Positions 1 to 24,918 of a stretch of DNA of 24,918 nucleotides are shown one piece after another (position 1 is the first letter of the stretch; every line of letters begins with the position of its first letter). The notes beneath the pieces are model-generated. The model was given only the letters and a program-made list of their open reading frames with translations, had not been told where the DNA came from and did not search any database. A program made the position numbers and the translations under genes. Origin of the DNA: Planctomycetota bacterium (GTDB taxonomy: Bacteria; Planctomycetota; B15-G4; JADJEK01); NCBI GenBank assembly GCA_043802345.1, contig JAZDLC010000067.1, positions 1 through 24,918 on the forward strand. Reading direction: 5' to 3'.

Positions 1-1
1 T

Positions 2-247
2 GACCTGCGCCATGCCTTCGGCTCCCAGCTCGCCGCCGCCGGCGTCCCACTGACGCACATCCAGCGGCTCATGGGCCACAAGGCGATCGCCACCACGATG
101 CGCTACGCGAAGCACCAGCCAGACGATGCCGGCCGTCTCGCAATCGCCCGACTCGAACAGGCCCGCCATTCGAACAGTTCGGCGTCGACCGAAGGCGACG
201 TTGCACATGCACCCGACCGCTCGAACCCCTGGAGAGAGAGCCCATGA
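2..247 (+). CDS. Tyrosine recombinase (phage-type integrase), C-terminal fragment; the 5' end lies outside the window
   Basis: The frame starting at nt 2 has no Met and translates to DLRHAFGSQLAAAGVPLTHIQRLMGHKAIATTMRYAKHQPDD... up to a TGA at 245-247. This matches the tyrosine recombinase C-terminal box (R-H...LLGH..I.TT..Y), including the catalytic RY tyrosine. The ORF track misses it because it has no in-window start. Confidence 0.7.
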   Translation, partial: DLRHAFGSQLAAAGVPLTHIQRLMGHKAIATTMRYAKHQPDDAGRLAIARLEQARHSNSSASTEGDVAHAPDRSNPWRESP

Positions 248-275
248 CAAGAGACAAGAGGGAGGATTCTAGAAC

Positions 276-605
276 ATGATGTGGAAGGCAGTGCAGCAGC
301 GAGAATGCATGGAATGTGGAAAAACCGCGTCCATTGAGGTGACCGTCCAAGATGGCCCCATTCCCAGGATCGGCGAGACCATCGTCGTGAATCCAAGCCC
401 TGGCCTGGTCTTGTACGTCGATGAAGCTCCCTACCGGTGCACTTCCGATCGGGTCGGGACAGTCATCGGCGCCGTGGTGGAAAACGTGGTCTACTGGCTG
501 ACCCCACCGGAGGGGGAGGTTCTGCTGGAACTCTCCGAGGAAAAAGGGTCTTGTCCTCGGTGTGACCCGTTTATGGAGCCGATTCCAACCAATCCGGCAC
601 CGTGA
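276..605 (+). CDS. Hypothetical small protein with two CxxC pairs (putative zinc ribbon)
   Basis: A strong Shine-Dalgarno (SD) motif GAGGGAGGA sits 6 nt upstream of ATG 276. CMEC is at residues 11-14 and CPRC at 93-96. The composition is protein-like. It lies between the integrase fragment and the TAC-like cassette. Confidence 0.5.
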   Translation: MMWKAVQQRECMECGKTASIEVTVQDGPIPRIGETIVVNPSPGLVLYVDEAPYRCTSDRVGTVIGAVVENVVYWLTPPEGEVLLELSEEKGSCPRCDPFMEPIPTNPAP

Positions 606-616
606 CGAGAGGATCT

Positions 617-1033
617 CTACTTGGGAGTTCTAGGAACCGTGAAGTTCATCGGCGGAAGGATGACCTGAATCAACCCGGCTCGGCGACAGAGATCGCTGAT
701 CGCCTCTCGCGCGAAGCCGTAGAGGAACGCTGGAGCATGCACCCTCTGGACCGACTCGATATCCACGTCGCTTTCATTCTCGACGAGGAATCTCGCTGAG
801 AAAGTTGCAGCAGCCTTCCAAAGATCCTTCTTCTCATCGACAGTTCCGCTGACAACCACAGTGAGCCGGTGCTCCATGCCGACATCCCTCTGAATCGGCG
901 CGTGCGTCTGGATCTGAAAACTGACCCTGTTCGTCGTCTCTTTCGTTGGGTCTTCAATGGTCCAAGCAAAACTCATCTCAACTAGGTTGACCTGAGTGAC
1001 TGAATAGCCCTTCGTTGGTACTGGATCGGTCAT
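617..1033 (-). CDS. SecB-like export chaperone (solitary SecB homologue, TAC-type)
   Basis: The 138-aa product resembles E. coli SecB. FQIQTHAPIQRDVGME aligns with FQIQRIYTKDISFE, RLTVVVSGTV with VVLRVTVTA, and AFLYGFAREAISDLCRRAGLIQVILPPMNF with [29 protein letters not shown]. Its start overlaps the upstream gene's stop as ATGA at 1030-1033. Confidence 0.8.
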   Translation of the reverse strand: MTDPVPTKGYSVTQVNLVEMSFAWTIEDPTKETTNRVSFQIQTHAPIQRDVGMEHRLTVVVSGTVDEKKDLWKAAATFSARFLVENESDVDIESVQRVHAPAFLYGFAREAISDLCRRAGLIQVILPPMNFTVPRTPK

Positions 1034-1605
1034 GCCGCCTCCGCCATCTCCTCCGCTTCCTCACGTTCGTACTCGGGAGGAGGGCCCACGATGCACTCGA
1101 AATTGACCGAGCCTGCGTTGAGATTTCCAATTGGTGTCCAGTCACCGTGAGGACAACTAGCACCTGACACCAGGCCGAAATCCGGAACTACCAACCTCCC
1201 TCCGGCAATCTCCTTGAACCGTGCATCGAGGTGAACGGGCAACGACGGGGGGAGCACCGAAATGGTGAAGGACCGAGCAACGGTTGGAGTGTACGCGTCG
1301 AAAACGACGCCAAAAGCAGCTCTCACATCCTCCTCGGTCCGAACATGCCCCTCGCGAGGATGCGCCCAGACGATCGATGCCCCAGCGCCATCCACCGCGA
1401 ATTCGCGAGATACGATCTTTCGCAGCAGCTTTCGCTGGAGATCTCGGGCATCTCGACCAAGTGCACCAACCACATTGTACTGCAGTACCATCCCCTCGTC
1501 GGCACCCGCGCATCGCGTCACGAAGACCGGGTACGGAAACACCTGATCGCGTAGCTCCCTCAGCACCTCTCGAGCTATCTGCATATCTGGAGCAACGTCG
1601 CTCAT
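1030..1605 (-). CDS. Hypothetical protein with acidic C-terminal tail (candidate antitoxin of a TAC module)
   Basis: The 191-aa ORF is translationally coupled on both sides (ATGA at 1602-1605 and 1030-1033). I recognise no known domain. A hydrophobic patch SVNFECIVG is followed by the acidic tail PPPEYEREEAEEMAEAA, which could be a chaperone-addiction segment. The antisense ORFs are low-complexity. Confidence 0.55.
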   Translation of the reverse strand: MSDVAPDMQIAREVLRELRDQVFPYPVFVTRCAGADEGMVLQYNVVGALGRDARDLQRKLLRKIVSREFAVDGAGASIVWAHPREGHVRTEEDVRAAFGVVFDAYTPTVARSFTISVLPPSLPVHLDARFKEIAGGRLVVPDFGLVSGASCPHGDWTPIGNLNAGSVNFECIVGPPPEYEREEAEEMAEAA

Positions 1606-2015
1606 GGATTCACACCTAGTCCTTCGAGAAGTGCCCTCAGCTCTCTGAGATCTTCCAATACGTGGGTGCGTTTGGGGCTTCCTGGACCGTAGTCTGCCTC
1701 GATTCGCCTCTGTTTCAGATCCGCGTAGCGCACCGAGTTCTCCGTGGCATCCTGCCGATTCCAGCCACTCCCAAGAAAAGCGGCCCGGGCGTTGCTTTGG
1801 ACCCGTCCATGGTCCCAGTTTCCTCTTTCGTTCTTCAGAGCCTCTGGGTTTAGCCCCCTCGCGAGCAATCTCGCGATAACCGCCTGGAACAGGGCGTAGT
1901 AGTTCCTTGTCGCTGCTGGCCGGTGGTGCTCTCCAGGAGGTTGAAAACCCATCAGAACTTCGGACGCGCGATAGTTTGCTCGGGATCGATCTCGGAACTC
2001 CTCGGGCGACGACAT
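1602..2015 (-). CDS. HEPN-domain protein (candidate RNase toxin)
   Basis: The 137-aa product contains NYYALFQAVIARLLARGLNPEALKNERGNWDHGRVQSNARAAFL. This is the hallmark HEPN helix (AYYAxFHAAxALL) followed by an Rx4HG motif. It is the first gene of the coupled cassette. AAGAGGGA lies about 12 nt upstream of the ATG. Confidence 0.6.
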   Translation of the reverse strand: MSSPEEFRDRSRANYRASEVLMGFQPPGEHHRPAATRNYYALFQAVIARLLARGLNPEALKNERGNWDHGRVQSNARAAFLGSGWNRQDATENSVRYADLKQRRIEADYGPGSPKRTHVLEDLRELRALLEGLGVNP

Positions 2016-2150
2016 GGGTTGCTATCCCTCTTCTTGCTTTCAGTAGCAGAATACCGCACCACCGGCCGCCGCCACATCACTTTCGCTGTTGCGGCTCAGA
2101 GAGAGCTTTTCTCGCTCGCCGGTACTGTTCTGTGGCGGTGGCGGACCAGT

Positions 2151-2176
2151 GCACAAGGGCACACGTAAGGGCACAT
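2151..2176. repeat. GCACA x3 / AAGGGCACA x2 direct repeats with 12-bp spacing
   Basis: The sequence reads gcacaagggcacacgtaagggcacatg. It lies between the cassette promoter region and the tRNA fragment. Confidence 0.4.
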
Positions 2177-2251
2177 GACCGAAACTCCATGCATTCAATC
2201 CTCCGTAATACGATTACAGCAAATGGGTTGCAGCATCCTCACGGTACATCC

Positions 2252-2312
2252 GCGCCAGATTTAGGATCTGGTGCCGAAAGGCGTGGGGGTTCGAGTCCCC
2301 CCTCTCGCACCA
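2252..2312 (+). other. Truncated tRNA-Leu(UAG) 3' portion (anticodon arm, long variable arm, T-arm, acceptor 3' strand, CCA); putative att-site remnant
   Basis: CCAGA-TTTAGGA-TCTGG forms an anticodon stem-loop with anticodon TAG, U33 and G37. TGCCGAAAGGCG is a type-II variable arm. GGGGGTTCGAGTCCCCC is the T-arm. CTCTCGC-A-CCA is the acceptor 3' strand, very close to the E. coli tRNA-Leu 3' end. No D-arm and no matching 5' acceptor strand (GCGAGAG) is present upstream, so this is not a complete tRNA. Confidence 0.55.
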
Positions 2313-2435
2313 TGCGGCCCTTGACGGGATGGCCGGGGAATCCACCCTCCACCGGAGCGCCCTCCCGGGTAACCGGGCGCCCTTCGCTTCGTCCTCGTTC
2401 CCGAACCGAGGCTCGGCGCTGGAGGGCATGGCGAC

Positions 2436-3380
2436 TTGGAACAGAGAGACTACCCGCGCGACGATTTCGACGGCCCCTGGAAGGAAGCGCTGGAGATCTA
2501 CTTCGAGGACGCTCTCCGCCTCCTGATTCCGGACCTTCATGCCGCCATCGACTGGAATCAGGAGGTCGCATTCCTCGACAAGGAGCTGCAGAGTTTCTTC
2601 CCGGATGAAGGCAGCGGCAAGGGAATCGTCGATCTGCTTGCGCGGGTCATGACGCAGAAAGGCACACCCGCCCGGATTCTGCTCCATGTCGAAGTCCAGG
2701 GGAATGTGGATCGATCGTTCGCCCTGCGCATGTACCAGTATCAGTACAAGGCGTTCGACCACTCCGGACTCCCGGTCGAGAGCGTCGCCATTCTCGCCGA
2801 CCTCAGCCCGTCCTTCCGCCCGGACCATTTCGAACAGGTCGCACTGCATACTCGGATCCGATTCGACTTCACGACCGTCAAGCTGCTCGACTTCGAGGAC
2901 CGCGTCGACGAACTGGGAACCAGCGACAACCCGTTCGCCATGTTCGTGCTGGCGTATCTCCGCGCGCGGCGGAATCGGGATGGCGAGAGGCGGTACCGGT
3001 ACAAGATCGAGCTGGTGCGCCTCCTGTACGACAGAGATTTCGACCGCGTGGACGTGGTACAATTGCTGCGGTTGCTCGACAAGGTCATCGGGCTGCCGCA
3101 CGACCTCAGAAGACCGTTCCAGCATGCCGTCACGCAGATCGAGGAGGATCGGACGATGACCAGTTACGGGAGCCTCGAGGAGTTGGCGATGGAGAAGTAC
3201 TCTCGCAGAGCGATCCTGACCGTGATGGAAACGCGGTTCGGGACCCTGCCTCCAGAGCTCAGTGCGGCCCTGGAGCAAATCGAGTACCTCGACATCCTGG
3301 ACGGACTTGTCCGCCAGGCGGTGCTGGTCGAGGACGTCGAAACCTACCTCACAGCCGTGAGAAAGCACGTCCCCTCCTGA
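2436..3380 (+). CDS. Putative Rpn/YhgA-like PD-(D/E)XK nuclease or transposase, DUF4351-type C-terminus
   Basis: The N-terminal DGPWKEALEIYFEDALRLLIPDL, the core motif GIVDLLARV...ILLHVEVQ (D...E-V-Q) and the C-terminal TVMETRFGTLPPELSAALEQIEYLDILDGL all match this family (recognition from memory, no search run). The antisense 410-aa ORF 2214..3446 is an artefact. Confidence 0.8.
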   Translation: MEQRDYPRDDFDGPWKEALEIYFEDALRLLIPDLHAAIDWNQEVAFLDKELQSFFPDEGSGKGIVDLLARVMTQKGTPARILLHVEVQGNVDRSFALRMYQYQYKAFDHSGLPVESVAILADLSPSFRPDHFEQVALHTRIRFDFTTVKLLDFEDRVDELGTSDNPFAMFVLAYLRARRNRDGERRYRYKIELVRLLYDRDFDRVDVVQLLRLLDKVIGLPHDLRRPFQHAVTQIEEDRTMTSYGSLEELAMEKYSRRAILTVMETRFGTLPPELSAALEQIEYLDILDGLVRQAVLVEDVETYLTAVRKHVPS

Positions 3381-3434
3381 GGGCCAGTCCGATTCTCCGG
3401 TGGCCCGGCGAGCAAGTCGGGAGCGCTCTCCCCT

Positions 3435-3470
3435 GGCCGCAGCCACCGGCCCCCTTCGTGCTCTTCGTGC
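3435..3470. repeat. About 35-nt imperfect direct repeat, copy 1 (GCAGCCACCGGCCCCCTTCGTGCTCTTCGTGC)
   Basis: It is about 85% identical to copy 2 at 3626..3660. The two copies flank the small EYEY ORF. Confidence 0.5.
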
Positions 3471-3667
3471 TACTTGCCTCGAACTTCTTCGCGGCGCGCG
3501 TAGATCTTTCCATACTCGTACTCAGCGAAGCGGTACTCGTACTCGAACCCCCCACGCGGGTCGGCCTTCGACGATTCGAGTGCGCGTACGAGTACGGGAT
3601 CGATGCCCGGCACCTCTCTCTTTGGTTGCGGCCACCGCCCCCCCCTCATGCTCTTCATGCCCTTCAT
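3470..3667 (-). CDS. Candidate small protein (65 aa) with EYEY repeats; uncertain
   Basis: The ORF reads MKGMKSMRGG...GGFEYEYRFAEYEYGKIYARREEVRGK and starts 14 nt after the flotillin stop. The EYEY repeats account for the nucleotide-level ACTCGTACTC repeats. The SD is weak. It could instead be a non-coding structured region. Confidence 0.2.
   Translation of the reverse strand: MKGMKSMRGGRWPQPKREVPGIDPVLVRALESSKADPRGGFEYEYRFAEYEYGKIYARREEVRGK
3626..3660. repeat. About 35-nt imperfect direct repeat, copy 2 (GCGGCCACCGCCCCCCCCTCATGCTCTTCATGC)
   Basis: It is paired with copy 1 at 3435..3470. Confidence 0.5.
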
Positions 3668-3683
3668 GGTTCAGCTCTGACGA

Positions 3684-5291
3684 TCAGCCGTCCTGCCCCT
3701 TCTTCTCGGCTCCTTCCTTGGCCTCCGGCTTGGCCGCGTCTTTCTTGCTCTCCTTGGCCGGAGCGGGCTCCTCCTGCTTCACGAGCCTGCCGAAGAACTC
3801 CGGCATCTCGACGCCGCCGACGTCCTTCATGATCTGCATCATCGGCGGGATGGCTCCGCCCAGGCTCTTCAGGAAGCCCGAGGTGGCGCTGCCGTTCCCG
3901 CCGGCGTTGCCGCCGTCCCAGACGATGACCTTGTCGAACTTGATGTTGGAGATCGCCTTTGCCGCGGTCTCCGAGAGATGATCGAGGTGCTCCAGCATCA
4001 GCATCTGGAACGCCTCGTGCGACCCGCCACACGCCTGGACGATGCTGCGCAGACCTTCGCCCTTCTTCGCCAGGATCTCGTACTGGCCCCGGGCCGTTGC
4101 GTCGAGCCTCGCGAAGATGGCCGACGCCTCGCCTTCCGCCTCGATCCGCCGCCTTTCGGCCACGGCCTCCGCGTCGACGATCACCTTCGCCTTTTGTGCC
4201 TTGGCCACCGCCTCCAGCTCGGCCCTTTTTTCCGCCTCCTGCTTGGCGGCCATCGCCAGGGCCGCCTTGGTCTCCGCGTGGTACTGCGCCTCGAGCACTC
4301 CGGCCTCCGCCTCGCGCTTTCGCGTCTCGCCGATTTGGTACGCCTCCGCTTCCTTGACCTTCAGGGTGGCATTCACGTCGGCGATCTGCGCCTTCGATAG
4401 GTTCTCGCCGGTGACCGCCTTGGCGTTGGCGCTTGCCACCTGGATGCGCATCTCCCTTTCCGCATCCTTGATCATCGACTCCTGCTCGAAGCGGGCCGTC
4501 TCCTCGCCGACCGCCTTTTCCTTCTCCAGCACGGCGAGCCTCACCGCCTGCTCCCGTTCCGCCTCCTTGGTGCCGATGCTCTGGAACTTGACCGCGTTTG
4601 CAACCTGGATCTGCCGTTCCCGCTGGTTCTCCGCCACACCGATGGCGCCCTTCTTCTCCTGCACCGCCACGTCCACCAGCGCCTGCTGGATCGCCTCGGA
4701 CGCCGCCTTGCGGCCGATCGCCTCGATATACCCAGACTCGTCGGTGATGTCGGTGATATTGACGTTGATCAGCACCAGCCCGATCTTCTCGAGTTCCGGC
4801 TCCAGAGAGCGCTGGATGCTCTCCAGGAACTTCTCGCGGTCCCGGTTGATGTCCTCGATCAGCATCGACGCGATCACCTGACGCAACTGGCCGAAGATGA
4901 TGTCCTCGGCCTGCTTCATGATCTCGGACGTGGAAAGCCCGAGCAGACGAATCGCCGCGTTCTGCATGGTGGGGCCCTGGGTCCCCACCGCCACCGTGAA
5001 CACGCTCGGAACATTGACCCGGATGTTCTCGATGGAGAGCGCGCCTTTCAGCGGAATCTCGATCTGGATCGGATCCAGGCCGATGTACGCGTAGTCCTGG
5101 ATCAGAGGCCAGATGAACGCGCCGCCGCCATGTAAGCACTTGGCGGACTGGCCGGAGGCGACCTTGCCGTACACCACGAGCACGCGGTTGCTGGGGCAGC
5201 GCTTGTAGCGCGTGACCACCATCATCAGCATCAGGAAGGCGACGAACAGCGCCGCCACGATGATTCCAATTGTGTACGGATTGTCAGGCAT
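3684..5291 (-). CDS. Flotillin-family SPFH-domain protein (YqiK/FloT-like)
   Basis: An N-terminal TM segment is followed by the SPFH region VLVVYGKV...GGGAFIWPLIQDYAYIGLDPIQIEIPLKGALSIENIRVNV. There is a long Ala/Glu/Lys coiled-coil region and a charged tail. The start overlaps the nfeD stop as TGATG. Confidence 0.9.
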   Translation of the reverse strand: MPDNPYTIGIIVAALFVAFLMLMMVVTRYKRCPSNRVLVVYGKVASGQSAKCLHGGGAFIWPLIQDYAYIGLDPIQIEIPLKGALSIENIRVNVPSVFTVAVGTQGPTMQNAAIRLLGLSTSEIMKQAEDIIFGQLRQVIASMLIEDINRDREKFLESIQRSLEPELEKIGLVLINVNITDITDESGYIEAIGRKAASEAIQQALVDVAVQEKKGAIGVAENQRERQIQVANAVKFQSIGTKEAEREQAVRLAVLEKEKAVGEETARFEQESMIKDAEREMRIQVASANAKAVTGENLSKAQIADVNATLKVKEAEAYQIGETRKREAEAGVLEAQYHAETKAALAMAAKQEAEKRAELEAVAKAQKAKVIVDAEAVAERRRIEAEGEASAIFARLDATARGQYEILAKKGEGLRSIVQACGGSHEAFQMLMLEHLDHLSETAAKAISNIKFDKVIVWDGGNAGGNGSATSGFLKSLGGAIPPMMQIMKDVGGVEMPEFFGRLVKQEEPAPAKESKKDAAKPEAKEGAEKKGQDG

Positions 5292-5911
5292 CAGTTGGCT
5301 CCCTCGTCCAGAGACACGACTTCCAGGGTGTCGTCCGCGGGTACGCCGACGATCCTGACCATTGAACCAGTCTTCAATTCCTTGCCGGCCGTCACCGCCT
5401 TGGCCTCGACCGTGCGGCCCTGAACGGCCACGGTCACCTTCCCCCTCCCCTGGTGATTCCCGGGGATGCTCAGGTAGACCTTCGCGGCGGAGCCGATCGA
5501 GTTGCGCAGGTCGACGTTCCCCGAGGACTGCAGCTTCGAGAGGCCGGCCATCAGCCAGGCCACGATGTAGAGCGCAGCCGAACCGGAGGCGACCGAGATC
5601 ATCAGCGTCGGCACCGCCGAGACGCCGCCGCGGGTGGAGGCCATGCCGGAGAGGCCGAAGAAGGTCACGAACGCGACCAGCGTCTTGAACGTCAGCACCT
5701 TGAAGAACGCGTCGGCGGCGTCGGCGTGCGCCTCGGCTCCCCCATCCATGTCCAGGTCACCGTCCAGGTCGGCGTCGGTGTCGCTGAATCCGATCAGCAC
5801 CATGATCACCTGCAAGGCGAGGATCCCGCCGCCGATGATCGAGCAGTAGAAGTAGACAGTTTCCATGATTCGACGCGTCCCGAAAAACCAGCCCGTGGTA
5901 GCTGGAGACAC
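5291..5911 (-). CDS. NfeD-family membrane protein (YqiJ-like flotillin partner)
   Basis: N-terminal TM helices are followed by a C-terminal OB-fold-like KVTVAVQGRTVEAKAV...MVRIVGV. It is coupled to the flotillin gene. The start is GTG at 5911 (GGTGGAG upstream) or possibly ATG at 5866. Confidence 0.75.
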   Translation of the reverse strand: MSPATTGWFFGTRRIMETVYFYCSIIGGGILALQVIMVLIGFSDTDADLDGDLDMDGGAEAHADAADAFFKVLTFKTLVAFVTFFGLSGMASTRGGVSAVPTLMISVASGSAALYIVAWLMAGLSKLQSSGNVDLRNSIGSAAKVYLSIPGNHQGRGKVTVAVQGRTVEAKAVTAGKELKTGSMVRIVGVPADDTLEVVSLDEGAN

Positions 5912-6023
5912 CTGCCGGGCTCCACCTACCCGCCACGTCGGGGATTATTCTAGGGAGGTGCGTTGCCGGGCACCACCGCAAACGGGGACCCGGCCGGCGG
6001 CCGGATCCCCGTTCGACACGTCT

Positions 6024-6053
6024 CACTTCCCTATGGCTTTCTCAAGGGAAGTG
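6024..6053. promoter_or_regulatory. Perfect 9-bp inverted repeat (CACTTCCCT-N12-AGGGAAGTG) spanning the stop codon of the secreted-protein gene
   Basis: Seen directly in the sequence. No U-tract follows on the minus strand, so it is not a canonical intrinsic terminator. Confidence 0.3.
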
Positions 6054-7418
6054 GATCATGGACGGAGCCCCCAACTGCGCGGGCAGGCCGAACAGGGTGC
6101 TGCCGAAGTCGTACGGCTGCGCCAGGAGGATCCAACCACTCAGGGGATGGCCGAGCGGTCCGCCGATCACGGCCACTCCGTTGAAGTCCGCGGGAACCTG
6201 GGCCACGCCGTAGGTCGGGACCGCGTAGAACTGAGGGAACCAGCGGCCGTGGATCGTCGAGCCGATCGGCTGGTACCCGGGGATCGCCGGTTGCAGGCTG
6301 AAGAAGAGCGCGATCGACTGTCCGGGAGTGCAGTTCCCGATGTCGAATTCGACCCAGTTCTCGCTCGGGTAGTTCACTTCGCCATCCACCACGTCCGTGA
6401 CCAGGGCGCGGCCGGTCTCCGGCTGCACCGTCAGGGCTCCGATTCCTCCGCTCATCGAGCCGAGCCCGAAGTGTCCCAGATTCGGCACCGCGGCGCCCAG
6501 GGGCGGACCGGAACCGGTCGTGGCGAACTCGCCGTTGTTCTTCGTGGTCAGCACCACGGGACCCAGACTCTCGCCGGAGAAGTACAGGTTCGGATGGGGC
6601 TGTCCATCCAGTCCGATGAAGGTCTGCGCATTGGCGTCAATGGCCAGACAGGTGAGATCGCCGATCGTGGAGGAAGTGGTCAGCCCGGTGTTCGCCACCA
6701 TGGCATCCACGTCCGCCTCGTTCAGCAGCAGCACGGCGGAACCAGATGTGACGGTGAGCACTACACCGGAGCCGGCGAAGGTCATCGCCGCGGCCGGGAT
6801 CATCACCACTCCGCCGTCGCCCACCAGCGTGCCATTCACCATCTCGTCATCCGCGAAGGAGAGGTAGATGTTCCCGGCCACATCCTGGGTGAAGGCGTTG
6901 GTGTCGAGGGCGTCGACCCCGGAAGTCTGGCCCACCGCCGACAGGATCTGACTCTCCAGCAGCACGCTCTGTACGAAGTCGCCGCCGGACGCTCCGGGAA
7001 CAAACCGGAAGACCGAACCCTTGGAGACGCCGCCGAACGACTCGCTGGTCGAGAAGACGAACGAAAAGACGTTTCGGATCTCGAGGGGAGGCGCCGGAAC
7101 CTTCAGGATGTCGATGGCGTCGAAGCTGCCGATGAAGTTCTCCGCAAAGACCCCGTCCGCATCGTGATCCCCGAGGATCGTATCGATCGTGACGTTGGTC
7201 AGGATCTTCTCGCAAGAGAAGGTGAAGACCGGCTGGAAGCTCACGACATCAGTCGGTCCGAGGTTGGCCAGGACCGTCCCGCTCGAGCCGGAGGCCGTGG
7301 TGCCGCTGCCGTTCAGGACAAAGATGGCTGCGTCGGGGCCCGGGACAATCTGCGCCGAGGCGCTCAATCCGAGTACGGAGATCAGGAACAGGGTGCACGG
7401 GGTTCTGCGGATCATCAT
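6042..7418 (-). CDS. Hypothetical secreted Ser/Gly/Thr-rich protein with N-terminal signal peptide
   Basis: Good SD (GGAGAAGTGAGG) precedes the ATGATG at 7418/7415. The signal peptide is MMIRRTPCTLFLISVLGLSASA|Q. The track start at 7463 adds 15 residues with no SD. The antisense 528-aa ORF 5865..7451 is Arg/Gly/His-rich and an artefact. Confidence 0.6.
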   Translation of the reverse strand: MMIRRTPCTLFLISVLGLSASAQIVPGPDAAIFVLNGSGTTASGSSGTVLANLGPTDVVSFQPVFTFSCEKILTNVTIDTILGDHDADGVFAENFIGSFDAIDILKVPAPPLEIRNVFSFVFSTSESFGGVSKGSVFRFVPGASGGDFVQSVLLESQILSAVGQTSGVDALDTNAFTQDVAGNIYLSFADDEMVNGTLVGDGGVVMIPAAAMTFAGSGVVLTVTSGSAVLLLNEADVDAMVANTGLTTSSTIGDLTCLAIDANAQTFIGLDGQPHPNLYFSGESLGPVVLTTKNNGEFATTGSGPPLGAAVPNLGHFGLGSMSGGIGALTVQPETGRALVTDVVDGEVNYPSENWVEFDIGNCTPGQSIALFFSLQPAIPGYQPIGSTIHGRWFPQFYAVPTYGVAQVPADFNGVAVIGGPLGHPLSGWILLAQPYDFGSTLFGLPAQLGAPSMIHFP

Positions 7419-7635
7419 CCTCACTTCTCCAGGTGTCCAGAAAGTAGGTAGTGTGGTTCCCATTCGGAAGACGCCAACCGCCTGGCGAGCAACCTCCGCC
7501 GGACCGTCACGATCACTGGGGGCAATGTCGTCAGATTTGGACGAACTGCCACCTTGATTGGTTCAGATCCGAAAAAAAAACTATCAGTCCGACCAAATTC
7601 TGGATGTCTTTGCCTGGAATCGGCCCGTTCCCCGG

Positions 7636-8469
7636 CTATCCCAGCTGCCCGATCCTCTCCACCACGTCATGAATCAACTCGTCCGGAGTGGAAGCGCCCG
7701 CGGACACGCCGACCGACGAGGCGTCCTTGAACCAGTCAGGTTCCAGGTCGCCCGCCGTTCCGACCTGGTAGGTTCTGGGATTCAGACTCTTCCCGATGGC
7801 CGTCAGTCGCTTGGAGTTGGCGCTCGTGAAGGAGCCGACGACGATCACCACGTCATGCCGCTTGGCCAGCTCACGGATCTCCTCCTGATTCCTGCGGGTC
7901 GGAAAGCAGACCGTGTTGATGAAACGAAGGTCGGCCGCCTTGCGGGCCAGGACCGACAGCACGGCGATGATGTTCTCGATCATCTGGGTCGACTGGGACA
8001 CGACTCCGCAGCGCCGCATGTAGGGCAATTCCTCCGCCTCCTCCGGGCCGCTGACCACCAACGGGTTTTCCACCTGACTCGCGATCCCATCCACCTCCTC
8101 GTGGCCATGATCCCCGATGACCACCACCGTGCGCCCCTCTCTCTGCAGTTCCCTCACTTCCGAGTGGATCTTCGAGACCAGCTTGCAGGTGCCGTCCAGG
8201 ACATTCAGGCCGCTCTCCTCCGCGGCTTTCCAGACGTCCGTGGTGGTCCCGTGGGCGCGAAAAAGCAGGGGAGCATCCTTCGCTTCTTCCAGCGACGTAA
8301 CGACTCGAACTCCCGCTTCCGCGAGCTGCCCCACCACAACCTCGTTATGGACGATATCCCCCAGCATGTAGACCGTGCCATGCCTCTTCGCGCTCTCCTT
8401 GGCCAGCTTCACGGCGTCCCTGACGCCAAAGCAGTAGCCCGCGTGCTTCGCCAGTTCAATCCGCATCAT
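7636..8469 (-). CDS. ispH: 4-hydroxy-3-methylbut-2-enyl diphosphate reductase
   Basis: MMRIELAKHAGYCFGVRDAVKLA... matches the IspH/LytB N-terminus (E. coli MQILLANPRGFCAGVDRAI), including the conserved Cys ligands. The track ORF start at 8694 is an upstream in-frame extension (MLAVHPDAPFPQ...). The true start is ATGATG at 8469/8466. Confidence 0.9.
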   Translation of the reverse strand: MMRIELAKHAGYCFGVRDAVKLAKESAKRHGTVYMLGDIVHNEVVVGQLAEAGVRVVTSLEEAKDAPLLFRAHGTTTDVWKAAEESGLNVLDGTCKLVSKIHSEVRELQREGRTVVVIGDHGHEEVDGIASQVENPLVVSGPEEAEELPYMRRCGVVSQSTQMIENIIAVLSVLARKAADLRFINTVCFPTRRNQEEIRELAKRHDVVIVVGSFTSANSKRLTAIGKSLNPRTYQVGTAGDLEPDWFKDASSVGVSAGASTPDELIHDVVERIGQLG

Positions 8470-8535
8470 CCGATCGTTCCGGGGGTGAAAGGGGGATTGG
8501 CAGGGAGTCGACCGGGCATGGTATAGAATGCCTCC
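8470..8535. promoter_or_regulatory. Divergent promoter region between ispH (-) and the RluA-family gene (+)
   Basis: A 66-nt gap separates divergently oriented genes. Inferred from position only. Confidence 0.3.
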
Positions 8536-9543
8536 TTGGAGGATAGCTTGCGGCGAAAACAAAGCTGGGTCGTTCCGCCCGAACTGAAGAACCTGAGCCC
8601 GTACCGGTTTCTCTGCCGGTCGCTGGAGGAGGTCCGCCCCGGAATGCTGCGGCAGCTTCTGCGGGAAGGGGGCGTCCGGGTGGACGGCGAGCAAAAGGCC
8701 CTGAACCGGCCGCTGAAGGTGGGCGCCCTGGTCGACGTCGTCTGGCCGGACGAGCTGTACCAGCGGGCCTCGAGGAAGCAGGTCTGCGAGTCACTGGTGA
8801 TGCTTTATCAGGACGACCAGATCCTGGTGATCGACAAGCCGGCGGGCATCCCGGTGGTGCCGGACCGCCACCGGAACTCACCCACCGTCTTCGACCTGCT
8901 GCCGAAAGGCGTGGCGCGGCATCCGGATTCCGGCATGACACCGAAGCTGGCCCACCGGCTCGACAAGCACACCAGTGGCGCGCTGCTGATCGCCAGGGAC
9001 CGGGACGCCAAGCGTGACCTGACGCGGGCGTTTCAGGAACACCTGGTCCACAAGGAGTATCTGGCCCTGGTCCGGGGAGTCGTCCGGCAGGAGGATCAGA
9101 CGGTGGAGGCGGCGATCGGCAAGGACCGCAGGCATGCGGTCCGGATGGTGATCGACCAGGAGCATGGCAAGCCGGCCGTCACCAGGATCCGGGTGGAAGA
9201 GACCTTCGACGGCTTCACTCTCCTCAGAGTTTCGCCGATCACCGGCCGCACGCACCAGATTCGCGTCCACCTGGCGCACATCGGTTTTCCGATCCTGGGA
9301 GACGGCCTGTACGGCGGCCGGCCCCAGCTGTTTCTTTCCGATCTGAAGCGCTCCTTCCGGCCAAAGGCTGGCCGAGAACTGAAACCAGTGCTCGACCGCC
9401 AGGCGCTTCACTGCGAGATCCTCGAGTTCGACACGATGGACGGGGTCCGCCAGCGGGTCAGGTCCGAGCTTCCGTCTGATCTCCAGATCCTGCTCAAGCA
9501 CCTGCGCCGCTACCGACCGGCGAGAGAGCTTGAGAATCAATAG
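8536..9543 (+). CDS. RluA-family 23S rRNA pseudouridine synthase (RluD-like, S4 plus catalytic domain)
   Basis: The catalytic motif HRLDKHTSGALLIA is present, with an S4-like N-terminal region and a conserved C-terminal TGRTHQIRVHLA. The start is uncertain: TTG at 8536, or TTG at 8548 preceded by GGAGGA. Confidence 0.85.
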   Translation: MEDSLRRKQSWVVPPELKNLSPYRFLCRSLEEVRPGMLRQLLREGGVRVDGEQKALNRPLKVGALVDVVWPDELYQRASRKQVCESLVMLYQDDQILVIDKPAGIPVVPDRHRNSPTVFDLLPKGVARHPDSGMTPKLAHRLDKHTSGALLIARDRDAKRDLTRAFQEHLVHKEYLALVRGVVRQEDQTVEAAIGKDRRHAVRMVIDQEHGKPAVTRIRVEETFDGFTLLRVSPITGRTHQIRVHLAHIGFPILGDGLYGGRPQLFLSDLKRSFRPKAGRELKPVLDRQALHCEILEFDTMDGVRQRVRSELPSDLQILLKHLRRYRPARELENQ

Positions 9544-9633
9544 GCACCCCGGTAGACTGCCCGGCTTCCCAGCTTCGCGAGGGTCCTCGAAAGTCCCCCT
9601 CGATGGTCCCTAAGGTACTGGAAAAAAAACGAG

Positions 9634-9768
9634 ATGAAACTGAAACGCCGCAGCTCCAATTCAAAGCGGGCTCGCATGACCGGTTTTCGGTACCGCAGGA
9701 AGACCCAGGGCGGGCGAAGCGTCATTCGGCGCCGCAGGGCGCGGGGCCGCCGCCTCATGCCCAAGTGA
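9634..9768 (+). CDS. rpmH: 50S ribosomal protein L34
   Basis: The 44-aa product MKLKRRSSNSKRARMTGFRYRRKTQGGRSVIRRRRARGRRRLMPK matches the L34 consensus (M K.......KR.R.HGFR.RM.T..GR.V..RRR.KGRK.L) at identical spacing. It is absent from the ORF track because it is under 60 aa. Confidence 0.8.
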   Translation: MKLKRRSSNSKRARMTGFRYRRKTQGGRSVIRRRRARGRRLMPK

Positions 9769-9807
9769 TCCGTCAGGCCGTCACGAAGAGGCTTGACCCC
9801 TTCTCTC

Positions 9808-10407
9808 TCAACGGCCTGCCACCGCCGTCACATCCCCTGCGACCGCCCTGCCCAGCTCTCCCAGCAGCCCGCTCAGACAAGCCACCACGGCCGGGATCCC
9901 CTCCCCTGACGCTCTTCCGGTGAAACGGGAGCGGCGCCGCCGCAGCGCCTCATCTCCTTTCCCCGAAATCACCCACTCCGCGCTCAGCATGCAGTCGCCC
10001 TGCTCCGTGCCCTCGAACCTGATGATCTCCACTCCGATGCGGAGGTCGATCTCGCTCGGATGGCGATACGGCGCGCGCAGCACTCGCTTCGCTCCCGTCA
10101 GCACCAGGAGGTCGTCCGCAAGAACCCGCTCCAGATTCGACTGCAGCGGCTCGGCCCACTGATGGAAGACCTCCAGCCGAACCTGATTCCCCTCGAGCCG
10201 GGTCACCAGCTGCGGACGGTCCAGATAGCGCGGGATCACGACAGATCCCAGGCCGAGCGTCAGCCCATCGTCTCCTGGCGCCACGGCATCTCCGTCACCG
10301 GACGGAACCAGATGGTAGAGAGTTGTTTCCTGCTGCGGAGTGAAGCAGGCCAGCGGCGTGAGGGCCGCCGCCAGGAACAGAAGCCCCGCGACCGCAACTC
10401 GTCTCAC
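9808..10407 (-). CDS. pqiC: PqiC/YmbA-family lipoprotein (Pqi transport-system auxiliary component)
   Basis: A lipoprotein signal ends in the lipobox LTPLAC. It aligns along its length with E. coli YmbA: LYHLVP vs YYQLP, VVIPRYLDRPQLVTR vs VTVPDYLAGNGVVYQ, and EIIRFEG...SAEWVI vs TVTEFNG...SGEWLL. The GTG start overlaps the pqiB stop as GTGA. Confidence 0.8.
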   Translation of the reverse strand: MRRVAVAGLLFLAAALTPLACFTPQQETTLYHLVPSGDGDAVAPGDDGLTLGLGSVVIPRYLDRPQLVTRLEGNQVRLEVFHQWAEPLQSNLERVLADDLLVLTGAKRVLRAPYRHPSEIDLRIGVEIIRFEGTEQGDCMLSAEWVISGKGDEALRRRRSRFTGRASGEGIPAVVACLSGLLGELGRAVAGDVTAVAGR

Positions 10408-12098
10408 TTCGAACCTCCCGCCGGCTTCTTGCCGAAGATCAGTGCGTTCGGATCGCGCTCCAGGGTATCGGCCAATCCGCGGATCGAGCGCGTCGCCCCG
10501 TGAATTTCCGCCAGGACCCGGTCGATCTCGAACCGCAGCGGGGACTCATCCCCGACCGACTCGCGCATCTGCGTCAGGAAGGCCCTGGCATCCTCCAGGG
10601 TCGAGGACGCCCGGAGGGCAACCTGTTCCATGCTCCCGGCGAGAAGGTCGACCTTGCCGTCAATCCGCACGGCAAGGTCTCCGACCTTCACGAGAGTCTC
10701 GTTCAGGCTCTTCACGGAGGAGATCATGTCCGGGCTGGAAACCAGGTTGTCGAAGTCTGCCAGCGCCTTCTGCCCGGTTTCGGCCAACTCCTTGAGCGGC
10801 AGGGCCCTCAGCCTATCGAACGTGTCCATGGCGACGGCCTGGAACCGGTCCAATTGCGACTCGACCGTGGGGAAGGTCGGGTACGGAACGGTTGGCACAA
10901 TGCTCGCAGCCGGCGCGTCCCGATAGAAGTCGAGGTCGACGTACTGCTGGCCGGTGACGATGTAGCCGGACCTGAGCTGAGCACGCATTCCCTTCCCCAC
11001 CAGCGACTCGATGACCTCTTCGTCGGAGACGTCGCAGGGTTCGAACTCATGCAGCCGCTCCAGTTCCAGGTCGACCAGGACCGGAATCCGAATTTCGCCT
11101 CTCTGACGATCCAGCACGGCGCCCACATCCTTCACCTTGCCGATCTGCATCCCCTGGTACTCCACCGGCGCCCCGGCCTTCAGCCCCCGAGGACTGCTCT
11201 TGAAGGTCATCAGGTAGGTGATGCTGGAGGTGATCTTCGGCTGACCGACGTCAGCACGCTTCCCGTAGAGGTGGAACTGGTGGCCGCTCTTGCACCGGTC
11301 TCCCGGATTCCCATCATCGGTGTCGAAGGCGATGGCGCCGCCCAGGATGGCCGCCAGCGATTCTGCCTTCAGGCTCAGCCCATCTGAGCCCACTTTGACC
11401 TCCACTCCGCTGGCGTTCCAGAATCTTGAACTGGTGCGCACGAGGTCGGAGTAGCCGTCCTGGATGAACAGGTCGACCTTCACTCTCCGATTGTCCTCGA
11501 GAATCTCGTACGCCTCCACCTCGCCGACCTCGAAGTCGAGGTAGCGGACCGGCGAACCAACTCGCAATGAACCGAGCCGATCAGCGAGCAGCACCAGTCT
11601 CAGTCCCCGGTCCGCATGCGATGATGGCACCGGCCGGTCCAGCCCCTCGAACAACCGGGATGGAGCTCCCGGAGCCGGATCGATCGCCAGGTAGGTCCCC
11701 GAAAGGTACGTCTCCAGGTCAGAGATCCCCGCGGTGCCAAAGCGCGGCCGGGCAACCCAGAATTTCGTATTGGTCGTCAAGTGAGGCTCGAAGCTCCGGT
11801 CGATCTCCGCCTCCACCACGATCTCCCGCAGATCGTCCTGCAGCCGGACCGTCTTCACCAGGCCCACTTCCAGCGACCGGAACTTGACCCTGGTCTTGCC
11901 CGCCTCCAGCCCACGTGCGTCGGCGAAGGTGATCGAGACGGTGACGCCACGCGCGCTCACGCTCTGATAGAGGAGCCACAGGCCGATCCCCACCGCCACC
12001 AGCGGAACCAGCCACACGATGGAGATCCCACGCCTTGCCCGCACCACCACCTTCGGCAACTCCCCGGGGCTGGGGGGAGCTGGATTGGATGAGTTCAT
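10404..12098 (-). CDS. pqiB: PqiB-like multi-MCE-domain envelope-spanning protein
   Basis: The true start is ATG at 12098 (MNSSNPAPPSPGELPKVVVRARRGISIVWLVPLVAVGIGLWLL...), in an ATGA overlap with the upstream pqiA stop. There is an N-terminal TM segment followed by repeated MCE-like segments. Residues 1-176 of the track's 740-aa ORF are read-through in a non-coding frame. Confidence 0.85.
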   Translation of the reverse strand: MNSSNPAPPSPGELPKVVVRARRGISIVWLVPLVAVGIGLWLLYQSVSARGVTVSITFADARGLEAGKTRVKFRSLEVGLVKTVRLQDDLREIVVEAEIDRSFEPHLTTNTKFWVARPRFGTAGISDLETYLSGTYLAIDPAPGAPSRLFEGLDRPVPSSHADRGLRLVLLADRLGSLRVGSPVRYLDFEVGEVEAYEILEDNRRVKVDLFIQDGYSDLVRTSSRFWNASGVEVKVGSDGLSLKAESLAAILGGAIAFDTDDGNPGDRCKSGHQFHLYGKRADVGQPKITSSITYLMTFKSSPRGLKAGAPVEYQGMQIGKVKDVGAVLDRQRGEIRIPVLVDLELERLHEFEPCDVSDEEVIESLVGKGMRAQLRSGYIVTGQQYVDLDFYRDAPAASIVPTVPYPTFPTVESQLDRFQAVAMDTFDRLRALPLKELAETGQKALADFDNLVSSPDMISSVKSLNETLVKVGDLAVRIDGKVDLLAGSMEQVALRASSTLEDARAFLTQMRESVGDESPLRFEIDRVLAEIHGATRSIRGLADTLERDPNALIFGKKPAGGSK

Positions 12099-12724
12099 TC
12101 GTTCTTCTCCAGAGCGTCGAAGATGAGACGCGGATCGAAATTCCGGGTGGCGAGCATCGTCATCACCACCACCACACCGAAGGCGACGGCTCCCCCGTTG
12201 GGTGTGACCGAAGCGAGCGGGTCCACCTTGACCAGCGCGATCAGGATCGCGATGACGAAGATGTCCAGCATCGACCAGCGGCCGATCAACTCGAGGATCC
12301 GGTAGAGCCTGACCCGGTCCTTCGGCCTCCATTCCCAGCGGCCATGGACGGAGAGCAGCAGGAACAGCAGGCCCAGGATCTTCACACAGGGAACCACCAC
12401 GCTGGCAATCAACACCACCGCCGCCAGCACGTACTGTCCCCCTTCCATCAACTGGCGCACCCCCTCGAGGATCGTGCTCGAGTTGGCGCCGCGCAAGGTC
12501 TCCACCGTCATGACCGGATAGAGGTTCGCGGGAAGCAACAGCGCGACCGCCGCCAGGAGGAAGGCCCAGGTCCGCTGCATACTGCCCGGCTTGCGCGAGT
12601 GGAGCGTGGCATGACAACGGGGACACTGGCCGTGCCGTCCGAAACGCGCGGTCGGCTCGCGGCAGAGCCGGCCGCAGATCAGGCAGGTCAGGAGGCCGGA
12701 GCGGATCGCGCGGTTGCCGATCAT
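12095..12724 (-). CDS. pqiA: PqiA-family integral membrane protein, half-size (second copy)
   Basis: It starts at ATG 12724 (MIGNRAIRSGLLTCLICGRLC...HGQCPRCHA) with a CxxC...CxxC zinc ribbon followed by TM helices. ATGA overlaps occur at both ends. The track's 380-aa ORF carries a spurious upstream extension. Confidence 0.75.
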   Translation of the reverse strand: MIGNRAIRSGLLTCLICGRLCREPTARFGRHGQCPRCHATLHSRKPGSMQRTWAFLLAAVALLLPANLYPVMTVETLRGANSSTILEGVRQLMEGGQYVLAAVVLIASVVVPCVKILGLLFLLLSVHGRWEWRPKDRVRLYRILELIGRWSMLDIFVIAILIALVKVDPLASVTPNGGAVAFGVVVVMTMLATRNFDPRLIFDALEKNE

Positions 12725-13386
12725 CGCCCGGTCTCCAACCGTTCGAACAGCCGCTCGGAATCGAGCGACGCCGTGGCCCACGCGGTCAGGAGGACGAGCG
12801 CAAGGAGAGCCCAGAAGGCCGGTTCCAGCTTCAGCGCGGCCATTTCCCCCAGCTTCACCAGCGCCACCAGGCTGCCCAGCAGGTAGACCTCGAGCATGGC
12901 CCAGGGTCTGAGCCGCTCGCTCGCCTGAAGCACCCGCGCCTGCAGCGGCAGCCGCAGACCGAGTCGCAGTGGAAGCAGGACGTAGAGCAGGCCGAGGTAG
13001 ATTGAGAGCGGCGCAATGAAGATGACCAGCAGCAGCAATGCGCCCAGCATGAAGAACTGGGCGTCGAACAGCTCCAAGACCCCGGAGAGGATCGAGCCGG
13101 CCTGGCTCCGCCCCTCCATGGTGAAAGTCATGAAGGAACCGCAGTGGGCCATCACGAACAGCACCAGGCCCGCCAGGGTCAGCGCGAGGGTCTGGTCCAG
13201 GGCGTCCTTGCGGTGCTCGTAGAGAACCGCCCCACACCGGGAACAGCAGGCCCGTTGCCCGGAGCCAAGCGGCTCTCGCCGCAGCAGAAGATCACATTCG
13301 TGACAGGCGACCCAGCCACTCTGTTCAGCCCGGGAACCCAATCCAACCACCCCTGTAGAGAAGACCGGCGACGCATGTTCGTCCAC
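12721..13386 (-). CDS. pqiA: PqiA-family integral membrane protein, half-size (first copy)
   Basis: It has a CHECD...CCSRCG zinc ribbon plus hydrophobic helices. The GTG start at 13386 is uncertain and may be an internal GTG. Its stop overlaps the next pqiA start as ATGA. Confidence 0.7.
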   Translation of the reverse strand: MDEHASPVFSTGVVGLGSRAEQSGWVACHECDLLLRREPLGSGQRACCSRCGAVLYEHRKDALDQTLALTLAGLVLFVMAHCGSFMTFTMEGRSQAGSILSGVLELFDAQFFMLGALLLLVIFIAPLSIYLGLLYVLLPLRLGLRLPLQARVLQASERLRPWAMLEVYLLGSLVALVKLGEMAALKLEPAFWALLALVLLTAWATASLDSERLFERLETGR

Positions 13387-13469
13387 TGCGGGCGTTTTCG
13401 ACCCGCAAGGATCCGTTCTACCAGACGATCGGAGGCGGTTGAAGGAATCGGGGTCGGGGTCGATCTGTT

Positions 13470-14681
13470 CTACGCTTGGTTCGGAAGGTCGACCCCTTGC
13501 CGGAAGAGCCGCCGGACATGCTGCTCGCGCTCCTTCTCGATCGCGCGCAGCCTCGAGACGAGTTTCCAGGCTTGCTCCCAGATCTGCTCCCGCTCGTCGG
13601 CCCCGTCCGGAATAAGCTCCTCCTCGATGCAGGCCAGGCCCCGTTCAAGGCGGGTCAACTGGCTCCGAAGCGCCTGCTGCAGCCGTTCCGACGCGGGAAT
13701 GATCTCCTCTCTGATCCAGCGCGCCCGCGCGCGCGCCGACGACGGAGGAGACCTCCTCTTCAAGGCCAGCCAGCGAGCATCCAGCGTCGCCAGGCGCAGG
13801 CCTCCTCGCCGGACCAGATTCTCGCCGCGCAACCGGCCCGGACGGCATGCCGCTCCTGGAGTGGCCGCCAGAGGCGGCGGCCTGAGAACCGCCCGCGCCT
13901 CTTCCGCTTCAGGGGTCTTCGCGGCCGCCGCCTTCCGGCCAGTCCCGGGGCATAGCATCCGGGCGAGCAGTTCGCAGCAACCGCAAGCCGGACGCGCCCC
14001 ACAGATCGGCTTGCTGCCGGCAATAAACTCGGCCACCCCGACCCGCGCATGGAGGAGTTCGCGGCCGGTGGCGGAATCCTCGGGGCAACCGACTCGACCG
14101 AGAAACCGGACCACCTCTCCCCTGGCCACGAACCCCCTGGGCCGGAAGGCCCTGCGGAATTCACCGAGCGCGCCTGCTTCAAGGAACGGAGGCGCGTCCT
14201 GAGGGAGTCTGCTGAAGAACGCCTCCAGCTTTCCCGCCTCATGGGCAGCCCGCAGCGCGGAGGCGAACGGCAACCCGACGGCCCGCTTGTACGACAGGAT
14301 CCTCCGGGCGTGGTCGCGCAGACGGATGAGCCGATCGACCAGGCCGGGCTGGGAACGCCGGCGGCGGGTCAACCGCCTGGCCGTCTCCCGAATCTCGGGC
14401 ATGCTGGCGGTGGCCAGAAGCTCGGGATGGAAGCCGAACATCTCGGCGGCGATCGGCGAGTTGGAGAGCAGGGCCCCGGAGAGGGCCGCGAGCGCTTCCC
14501 GATCATCCCGAGGCAGGCCGTCCTCGCTGAGCCGGTCAACCTTGAGCCTCCAGCGAGGCCGTTGATGATCCAGGCAGGCAGCCACCGCCTCCAGCACTGC
14601 CGCCGCTCTCGGATCGTCCGACTGCGAAGCTCCGTCCATCACGCCCCCGGCCGATCTGCGCCTCAGCCGGCCGAACACCAT
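13470..14681 (-). CDS. Hypothetical protein with Cys cluster (C-x5-C-x-C-C-x8-C), unknown function
   Basis: The 403-aa ORF has protein-like composition with Leu/Glu/Arg-rich helices. It contains GCPED...ICGARPACGCCELLARMLCPG. It lies between the helicase and the pqi operon on the same strand. The antisense ORFs are Arg/Pro/Ser low-complexity. Confidence 0.5.
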   Translation of the reverse strand: MVFGRLRRRSAGGVMDGASQSDDPRAAAVLEAVAACLDHQRPRWRLKVDRLSEDGLPRDDREALAALSGALLSNSPIAAEMFGFHPELLATASMPEIRETARRLTRRRRSQPGLVDRLIRLRDHARRILSYKRAVGLPFASALRAAHEAGKLEAFFSRLPQDAPPFLEAGALGEFRRAFRPRGFVARGEVVRFLGRVGCPEDSATGRELLHARVGVAEFIAGSKPICGARPACGCCELLARMLCPGTGRKAAAAKTPEAEEARAVLRPPPLAATPGAACRPGRLRGENLVRRGGLRLATLDARWLALKRRSPPSSARARARWIREEIIPASERLQQALRSQLTRLERGLACIEEELIPDGADEREQIWEQAWKLVSRLRAIEKEREQHVRRLFRQGVDLPNQA

Positions 14682-14936
14682 TCTCCCGCGCGTCCTGGTT
14701 TAGTGGAAATCGGGCTCTTGCGCCATGTTTTCTCCACGGCTTGCCCTCCCCACAATCCCGCGGCATTCATGATCTGAAACATGCCGGGAAACGTGCGGCT
14801 GACTGCAAGGAACCAACCAGGCCGCGATCAGGGCGCGCAGGACGCCGCGGATCAGCGGATGCCGTGAGTTCTGAAGGACGCGACGATCGGCCACGGGGGC
14901 CTGACCAGGTGCCGCACGTCTTCTTCTGACGGCCGT

Positions 14937-22621: not shown

Positions 22622-22644
22622 GCCTTGCGGGAAGCTCCAAGCTG

Positions 22645-24918
<2,274 letters not shown>

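Follow-up and report, generated by a model that had tools for sequence, protein, structure and literature searches.

The window analysed here is the whole of contig JAZDLC010000067.1 (24,918 nt), from the metagenome-assembled genome (MAG) of a Planctomycetota bacterium (GCA_043802345.1), and the subject of this study is its left-hand 2.3 kb, which carry the candidate right-hand end of a genomic island. The contig begins inside a tyrosine integrase gene on the forward strand, of which the 3′ end is present. This is followed by an orphan open reading frame (ORF) on the same strand, by three ORFs on the opposite strand, reading from a HEPN-family protein through a partner to a SecB-like chaperone, and by a non-coding stretch. 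The latter runs into a piece of a tRNA-Leu(UAG) gene, and beyond it lies DNA with genes of host-like composition. The coordinates are collected in Table 1.

Table 1. Features at the left-hand end of the window, in order along the forward strand, with the basis on which each was assigned.
Feature	Position	Strand	Basis
3′ end of tyrosine integrase gene, 81 codons and stop	2..247	+	PF00589, PHROG
Orphan ORF, 109 aa, CxxC pairs C11/C14 and C93/C96	276..605	+	ORF list; starts 29 nt past the integrase stop
SecB-like chaperone gene, third in the operon	617..1033	-	PF02556
Middle gene (p191), 191 aa, putative antitoxin	1030..1605	-	Partner comparison
HEPN-family protein (p137), 137 aa, first gene, putative toxin	1602..2015	-	Homologue profile
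Non-coding island-side arm adjoining the putative att core	2016..2250		Repeat scan
Displaced 3′ piece of tRNA-Leu(UAG), 62 nt, read as attR core	2251..2312	+	Rfam, blastn, anatomy
D-stem 3′ strand and G26	2251-2254	+	Read from sequence
Anticodon stem	2255-2259 / 2267-2271	+	Read from sequence
Anticodon loop, TAG at 2262-2264	2260-2266	+	Read from sequence
Variable arm	2272-2284	+	Read from sequence
T arm	2285-2301	+	Read from sequence
Acceptor 3′ strand	2302-2308	+	Read from sequence
Discriminator A; CCA	2309; 2310-2312	+	Read from sequence
Chromosomal flank right of the putative attR, then host-like genes	2313..2435		GC and GC3 back at host level

ARAGORN called no tRNA anywhere in the window. 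An earlier note on this DNA, made from the sequence alone, had proposed that the tRNA piece is a remnant of integration and had named a full tRNA prediction at this place as an outcome that would overturn the proposal; no such prediction was obtained. When the 83 nt of 2248..2330 were searched alone, the Rfam tRNA model matched 2248..2309 on the forward strand as a 5′-truncated hit over positions 20-71 of 71, with a score of 26.2 bits (E 4.6e-4), which is below the gathering score of 29 bits. An Rfam match to sR36 at 6780..6854 was discarded as chance (E 0.95). The tRNA similarity breaks off sharply at 2250/2251, the retained stems are all intact, and the 5′ acceptor strand (GCGAGRR) was found nowhere in the 450 nt upstream. 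A complete cloverleaf with 5′ acceptor strand and D arm is not formed by 2251..2312, which hence is not a functional tRNA gene; a diverged but complete tRNA was also considered, and rejected on the absence of both an ARAGORN call and an upstream GCGAGRR. The earlier note had put the fragment at about 2252..2312, correct to within 1 nt, and its description as a 3′ piece running through the CCA, with the 5′ acceptor strand absent, holds. The D arm, which it gave as lacking, is however not gone altogether, the 3′ strand of the D-stem being retained. Further tRNA fragments, such as might mark tandem islands to the right, were looked for and rejected, none being present elsewhere in the window.

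A collection of species-representative genomes was scanned with 45 nt of the fragment, and four Planctomycetaceae or Planctomycetota MAGs (L001-L004) were recovered, each with one intact, single-copy tRNA-Leu(UAG) gene. Over 2251..2309 the window agrees at 58 of 59 bases with the 3′ part of the intact gene in these four MAGs (blastn E 1e-22), the sole mismatch lying at position 32 in the anticodon loop. A likeness of this order is far beyond chance, and on the alignment the fragment is to be regarded as real. The DNA downstream of tRNA-Leu in the four MAGs was checked for integrases, and the sites look unoccupied. The intact tRNA-Leu gene of L009, the closest syntenic relative, shows 92% identity to 2251..2312. 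This intact gene shares with the window fragment both the T at position 32 and the encoded CCA, and the two features are therefore native to the window's lineage, though they are lacking in the four more distant MAGs. An encoded CCA follows the discriminator in the window fragment as well as in tRNA-Leu of L009 and L018, but is absent from the genes of L001-L004, whose tRNA bodies are otherwise the closest. Compensatory changes in the variable-arm stem separate the same two groups (GCC/GGC versus GGG/CCC).

The ORF cut by the contig start has its stop at 247, and its 81-aa product is matched by PF00589 (Phage_integrase) over profile positions 131-169 of 172 with 40.7 bits (cut-off 27.1) and also by PHROG integrase families. 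The Arg, His and Tyr positions of catalytic box II, as read from the sequence, are kept (DLRHAF...LMGH...MRYAKH), and the NCBI annotation of the partial protein is 'site-specific integrase'. The tyrosine-recombinase C-terminus that the earlier note saw at 2..247 is confirmed by these matches. The best NCBIfam similarities are to generic Xer, integron and phage-type catalytic cores, all far below their cut-offs. A homologue search of the protein collection gave nothing close beyond the fragment itself, and a scan of JGI metagenomes with the same fragment gave distant recombinases only, with no tRNA nearby. The gene lies upstream of the tRNA 3′ fragment, on the same strand and on the side where an island would be expected. 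An integron was considered and rejected: integron cassettes are found 5′ of intI, but here it is the 3′ end of the integrase gene that points towards the small genes, and attC-like repeats were not seen. The contig, which the window covers in full, stops inside this gene, so that the 5′ part of the gene is cut off and the other end of the island is out of view.

The composition of the DNA changes at the tRNA fragment. The GC content is 57.3% in 248..2250 and 66.1% in 2313..24918, and GC at third codon positions (GC3) is 0.60-0.67 in the four cargo ORFs versus 0.73-0.90 in the genes to the right. The low-GC DNA is unbroken from just past the integrase to the tRNA fragment, and there the foreign block ends.

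The same locus can be followed in relatives through the flotillin gene, which in the window lies at 3684..5291 on the minus strand. Judged by collinearity with L009 and L011, 3684..17768 on the minus strand is a conserved chromosomal block; its genes are those for flotillin and its NfeD-like partner, ispH/LytB, a pseudouridine synthase, rpmH, a PqiA-PqiA-MlaD-type transport cluster and a DinG-like helicase. The flotillin of L009 (JGI Ga0326597_10000724) is 84% identical to that of the window, and L009 is collinear with 3780..17048; synteny with L009, L010 and L011 begins at about 3780. In the orientation of the window, the order in L009 is galK, tRNA-His, tRNA-Arg, tRNA-Lys, prmA, the intact tRNA-Leu(UAG), 2 kb of small genes, a 3′ fragment of tRNA-Leu, one gene, and flotillin. 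The intact gene (16165..16248) and the fragment (14096..14155) are 2.07 kb apart, and no integrase lies between the two. In L018 an intact tRNA-Leu(UAG) gene lies 9.5 kb downstream of flotillin, and about 9 kb downstream of flotillin the contig of L011 (Logan SRR8556129_614) breaks off within the 3′ end of tRNA-Leu(UAG) (20553..20581). In all three of these relatives, which share with the window the synteny from flotillin to the helicase, the 3′ end of tRNA-Leu points towards flotillin, and so does that of the window fragment. No tRNA-Leu was found in the stretch examined beside flotillin in L019, L020 or L010. The genes adjoining flotillin differ in every relative examined (L022 was compared by gene content alone), and from this comparison the interval between flotillin and tRNA-Leu is a variable junction. 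In the window a 314-aa ORF on the forward strand (2436..3380) stands directly to the right of the tRNA fragment. Its GC content is host-like, its product has only a sub-threshold match, to the YhgA/Rpn-like putative transposase family PF04754 (E 0.009), and the ORF was not found at the same position in any syntenic relative; it may be an earlier arrival at the variable junction.

The break of the L011 contig exactly in tRNA-Leu(UAG) raises the question of the assembly. If two genomes had been joined at the conserved tRNA, the left and right parts of the window would come from different sources, and both the origin of the window in a MAG and the 9-point difference in GC across the junction would be accommodated. 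A join through a shared full tRNA would, however, yield a full tRNA and not a 5′-truncated one. One parent of such a chimera must already carry the fragment beside non-tRNA DNA, and therefore an island end is implied again; we regard a chimeric contig as very improbable. The tRNA locus may break assemblies in other samples too, perhaps through polymorphism of the island.

Comparison of the two fragments bears on how they arose. The window fragment starts at tRNA position 23 and the L009 fragment at position 24, and the DNA that they bound is unrelated in the two genomes. As the fragments start within one nt of each other despite the unrelated cargo, they point to a site-specific process at one sublocation of the tRNA and to a site that has been used repeatedly. 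The alternative that the tRNA-Leu(UAG) gene of the window was simply destroyed, an insertion or deletion having taken its 5′ third with no regenerated copy, agrees with the fact that the 3′ part alone is visible and that no intact copy is present in the window. Such a loss would, however, remove the only decoder with that anticodon if the gene is single-copy as in the four MAGs; the breakpoint lies within one nt of that in L009, where the fragment has an intact partner; and the integrase is on the expected side. Destruction of the gene therefore seems a most improbable account. Given that every one of the four MAGs has this tRNA in a single copy, the genome should keep an intact tRNA-Leu(UAG) copy, and its syntenic place should be just left of the island.

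L009 also gives support to an unlikely alternative, in which the tRNA-Leu locus is prone to rearrangement, the window fragment is a segmental duplication or a scar of old date, and the integrase belongs to another, possibly tandem, element or is inactive here. In L009 no integrase lies between the fragment and the intact gene, and the repeat there is not confined to the tRNA: it runs about 150 nt past it (16014..16232 matches 13967..14162) and takes in 370 nt of the 5′ part of a 571-aa gene next to it (15560..15930 matches 12268..12640, 89%). The region from flotillin to tRNA-Leu differs in all relatives examined, and in the window the integrase is 2 kb from the fragment and not beside the att site. 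Against this, the window fragment is undecayed, with its stems intact and 58 of 59 bases kept, whereas that of L009 has decayed, with its anticodon altered, a mismatch in the T-stem and a deletion. The low-GC foreign DNA is moreover continuous from the integrase to the fragment, and the window has no second fragment.

Several of these observations weigh against a simple island end. Because the L009 repeat extends past the tRNA into the neighbouring gene, at least one fragment at the tRNA-Leu locus does not come from simple core-only recombination, and 12257..16248 of L009 has the look either of a segmental duplication or of an island that has decayed, with DUF6941 and two small ORFs. In the window, the intact tRNA-Leu of the left-hand attachment site (attL) is not in view, the contig ending inside the integrase gene. 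The integrase fragment has a host-like GC content (0.675), and at 81 aa it is too short to tell an island integrase from an Xer-like recombinase. The integrase genes of islands usually adjoin the regenerated tRNA, and a distance of 2 kb from the fragment end would require either a very small island, of about 3.5 kb, or an atypical organisation.

Taking these points together, we consider it likely that 2251..2312 is the core of the right-hand attachment site (attR) and so the right-hand end of an island that lies to its left, in a chromosomal tRNA-Leu(UAG) gene. From what is established for tyrosine-integrase islands, the circular form of the element would carry an attachment site (attP) that duplicates the tRNA from the anticodon stem through to its 3′ end. 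Strand exchange by the integrase would take place at the anticodon loop, with the crossover in or near 2260-2266. The element's tRNA copy would then complete the gene at the left end (attL, beyond the contig), and the original 3′ part would be displaced to the right end, where it would form the 62-nt fragment. If the integrase adjoins the regenerated tRNA, the island would be about 3.5 kb long and consist of the tRNA, the integrase, four small genes and the fragment; otherwise it would be larger, with the integrase near its far end. The attR of an integrative element that the earlier note proposed thus stands as a probable reading, carried by the true 3′ end fragment, the integrase on the same strand and on the expected side, the drop in GC at the boundary and the presence of tRNA-Leu(UAG) at the syntenic site in relatives. 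Viral contigs were scanned with the tRNA fragment, the island arm, the integrase, p191 and the four-cysteine ORF; no close match came up, and the scans thus provide no evidence that the element is a phage.

An arrangement of this kind is what textbooks describe for site-specific integration at tRNA genes, and it brings no new principle. For an uncultured lineage of Planctomycetota it would mark out tRNA-Leu(UAG), downstream of the flotillin operon, as a place of repeated insertion, with a junction defined precisely at 2250/2251, and an island here would explain why the MAG contig stops where it does. The only mildly novel element is the cargo.

Among the cargo genes, the orphan ORF at 276..605 gave no match in Pfam, NCBIfam, PADLOC or PHROG, and no homologue of its product but itself was found among 1.84 billion representative proteins. 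The earlier note had called it a zinc-ribbon ORF; the two CxxC pairs are present, but with no homologue the label is only a guess. The three minus-strand ORFs have 4-nt start/stop overlaps, and because of these overlaps 617..2015 suggests a three-gene operon for a HEPN protein, a partner and a SecB-like chaperone.

About 21 homologues of p137, at 32-43% identity, were found in the same set of representative proteins. PF05168 (HEPN) is matched by 18 of the 22 aligned members of this family (the window protein and 21 homologues), and the family profile matches the PDB HEPN proteins 9xbd and 9xbc and the UPF0332 protein 2hsb. The invariant residues of the family are Y39, H69, R104, A107, D108 and Y109. 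The Rx4-6H motif of HEPN RNases is not formed: after the invariant R104 the sequence continues I-E-A-D-Y-G and has no His.

The middle protein, p191, has no family match in Pfam, NCBIfam or PADLOC. Its N-terminal part of about 110 aa shows 30% identity over 101 aa to the product of a gene that overlaps the end of the HEPN homologue gene in L021; this partner gene is cut by the contig end and aligns only to the first 110 or so residues of p191. A second HEPN homologue is followed by a partner gene of 113 aa, p191 being about 80 aa longer. On these alignments p191 looks like a conserved partner to which a C-terminal extension of about 80 aa has been added. The extension has aromatic residues every 13 positions (F130, F143, W156 and F169), followed by an acidic tail, EYEREEAEEMAEAA.

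The product of the third gene is matched by PF02556 (SecB) with 47.8 bits (cut-off 26), is below the NCBIfam SecB equivalog cut-offs, and weakly matches the PADLOC model PD-T4-9_C, a chaperone of defence-type toxin-antitoxin-chaperone (TAC) systems. Single-sequence AlphaFold2 models were poor for both p137 (pLDDT 53) and p191 (pLDDT 40), and direct PDB sequence searches with the single proteins gave no match.

Between the start of the HEPN operon and the att core, the non-coding arm contains a direct repeat, AAGGGCACA, found by the repeat scan at 2155-2163 and 2167-2175, 12 nt apart, and an inverted repeat, GCCGCCGCCACA / TGTGGCGGTGGC, at 2065-2076 / 2131-2142. By their position these could be arm sites of the integrase or the operator of the divergent operon; they are short and could also be chance.

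The tRNA-gene (tDNA) islands catalogued by Islander offer the closest frame for the island end. Islander asks for a full tDNA, for a cognate end fragment in the same orientation and on the correct side, for a tyrosine integrase between the two, for a fragment without Pfam overlap and for a length of 2-200 kb (PMC4383910). The integrase is defined there by a PF00589 ORF inside the candidate island, Xer and integron subclasses being excluded (PMC4383910). The survey lists 3760 islands with 3′ fragments and places the att anticodon-centred in 2083 of 3919 islands (PMC4383910). In the window the end fragment spans the tRNA from position 23/24 through the discriminator and CCA. It is free of Pfam overlap, since none of the three ORFs overlapping 2251..2312 is matched in Pfam. 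The integrase gene is on the same strand and on the side of the fragment that Islander requires, and at least 2.3 kb of the putative island is visible. A fragment start 5′ of the anticodon stem fits the anticodon-centred class. Like the tyrosine-integrase islands and prophages of Islander (Hudson et al, 2015, PMC4383910), the window has a displaced 3′ tDNA end fragment with an integrase upstream on the same strand. Like the anticodon-centred class, it also combines a fragment reaching from 5′ of the anticodon stem to the tRNA 3′ end with foreign composition and toxin-antitoxin (TA) or defence-type cargo. Unlike them, it has its full tDNA partner outside the view and its integrase 2 kb from the fragment end, not beside the regenerated tRNA; the host is an uncultured member of the Planctomycetota, and the visible part has no phage or conjugation genes.

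For the operon the comparison is with TAC systems and with HEPN two-gene modules. The TACs described so far join HigBA, HicAB or MqsRA TA pairs to a SecB-like chaperone, as in HigB1-HigA1-SecB(TA) of M. tuberculosis (Bordes et al, 2016, PMC5105189), and CmdTAC / PD-T4-9 is a further TAC system (PMC11618068, PMC9519451). TACs depend on an aromatic-rich C-terminal element of the antitoxin, the ChAD (bioRxiv 10.1101/2024.02.24.581848). The operon of the window resembles these in having three genes joined by 4-nt overlaps and ending in a SecB-like gene matched by PF02556, in the weak PADLOC match of that gene to the PD-T4-9 chaperone, and in the regularly spaced aromatics of the p191 extension, which recall ChAD elements. 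It differs in that its first gene is of the HEPN family and not HigB, HicA, MqsR or CmdT, and in that p191 has no recognised antitoxin domain; none of the TA families described in TACs (HigBA, HicAB, MqsRA, CmdTA) was matched in the operon in Pfam, NCBIfam or PADLOC. Because the architecture matches but the TA families do not, the operon appears on sequence grounds to be TAC-like in architecture at best and to fall outside every described TAC family; the 'TAC-like cassette' of the earlier note is right about the SecB-like gene that ends a three-gene operon, but not if a described TA family is meant, the first gene being HEPN. With the PF05168/UPF0332-type HEPN modules the operon shares the small overlapping partner gene after the HEPN gene, seen in at least two other metagenomic contigs. 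It differs from those two-gene modules in that the partner is not recognisable as an MNT nucleotidyltransferase, is extended and is joined by a SecB-like gene. Most likely, given these presumed roles, the operon is a chaperone-dependent TA module that would stabilise the island or defend against phage. More tentatively, and with less than even confidence, it could be a new kind of chaperone-dependent TA system, carried on a Planctomycetota mini-island of about 3.5 kb and made up of a HEPN toxin, an antitoxin with an added 80-aa tail bearing aromatics every 13 positions, from an uncharacterised family so far known only from two metagenomic neighbours, and a SecB-like chaperone. If functional, the HEPN/extended-partner/SecB-like operon would add a fifth toxin family to the chaperone-addicted TA systems, beside those of HigBA, HicAB, MqsRA and CmdTA, and would be relevant to work on both TA systems and phage defence.

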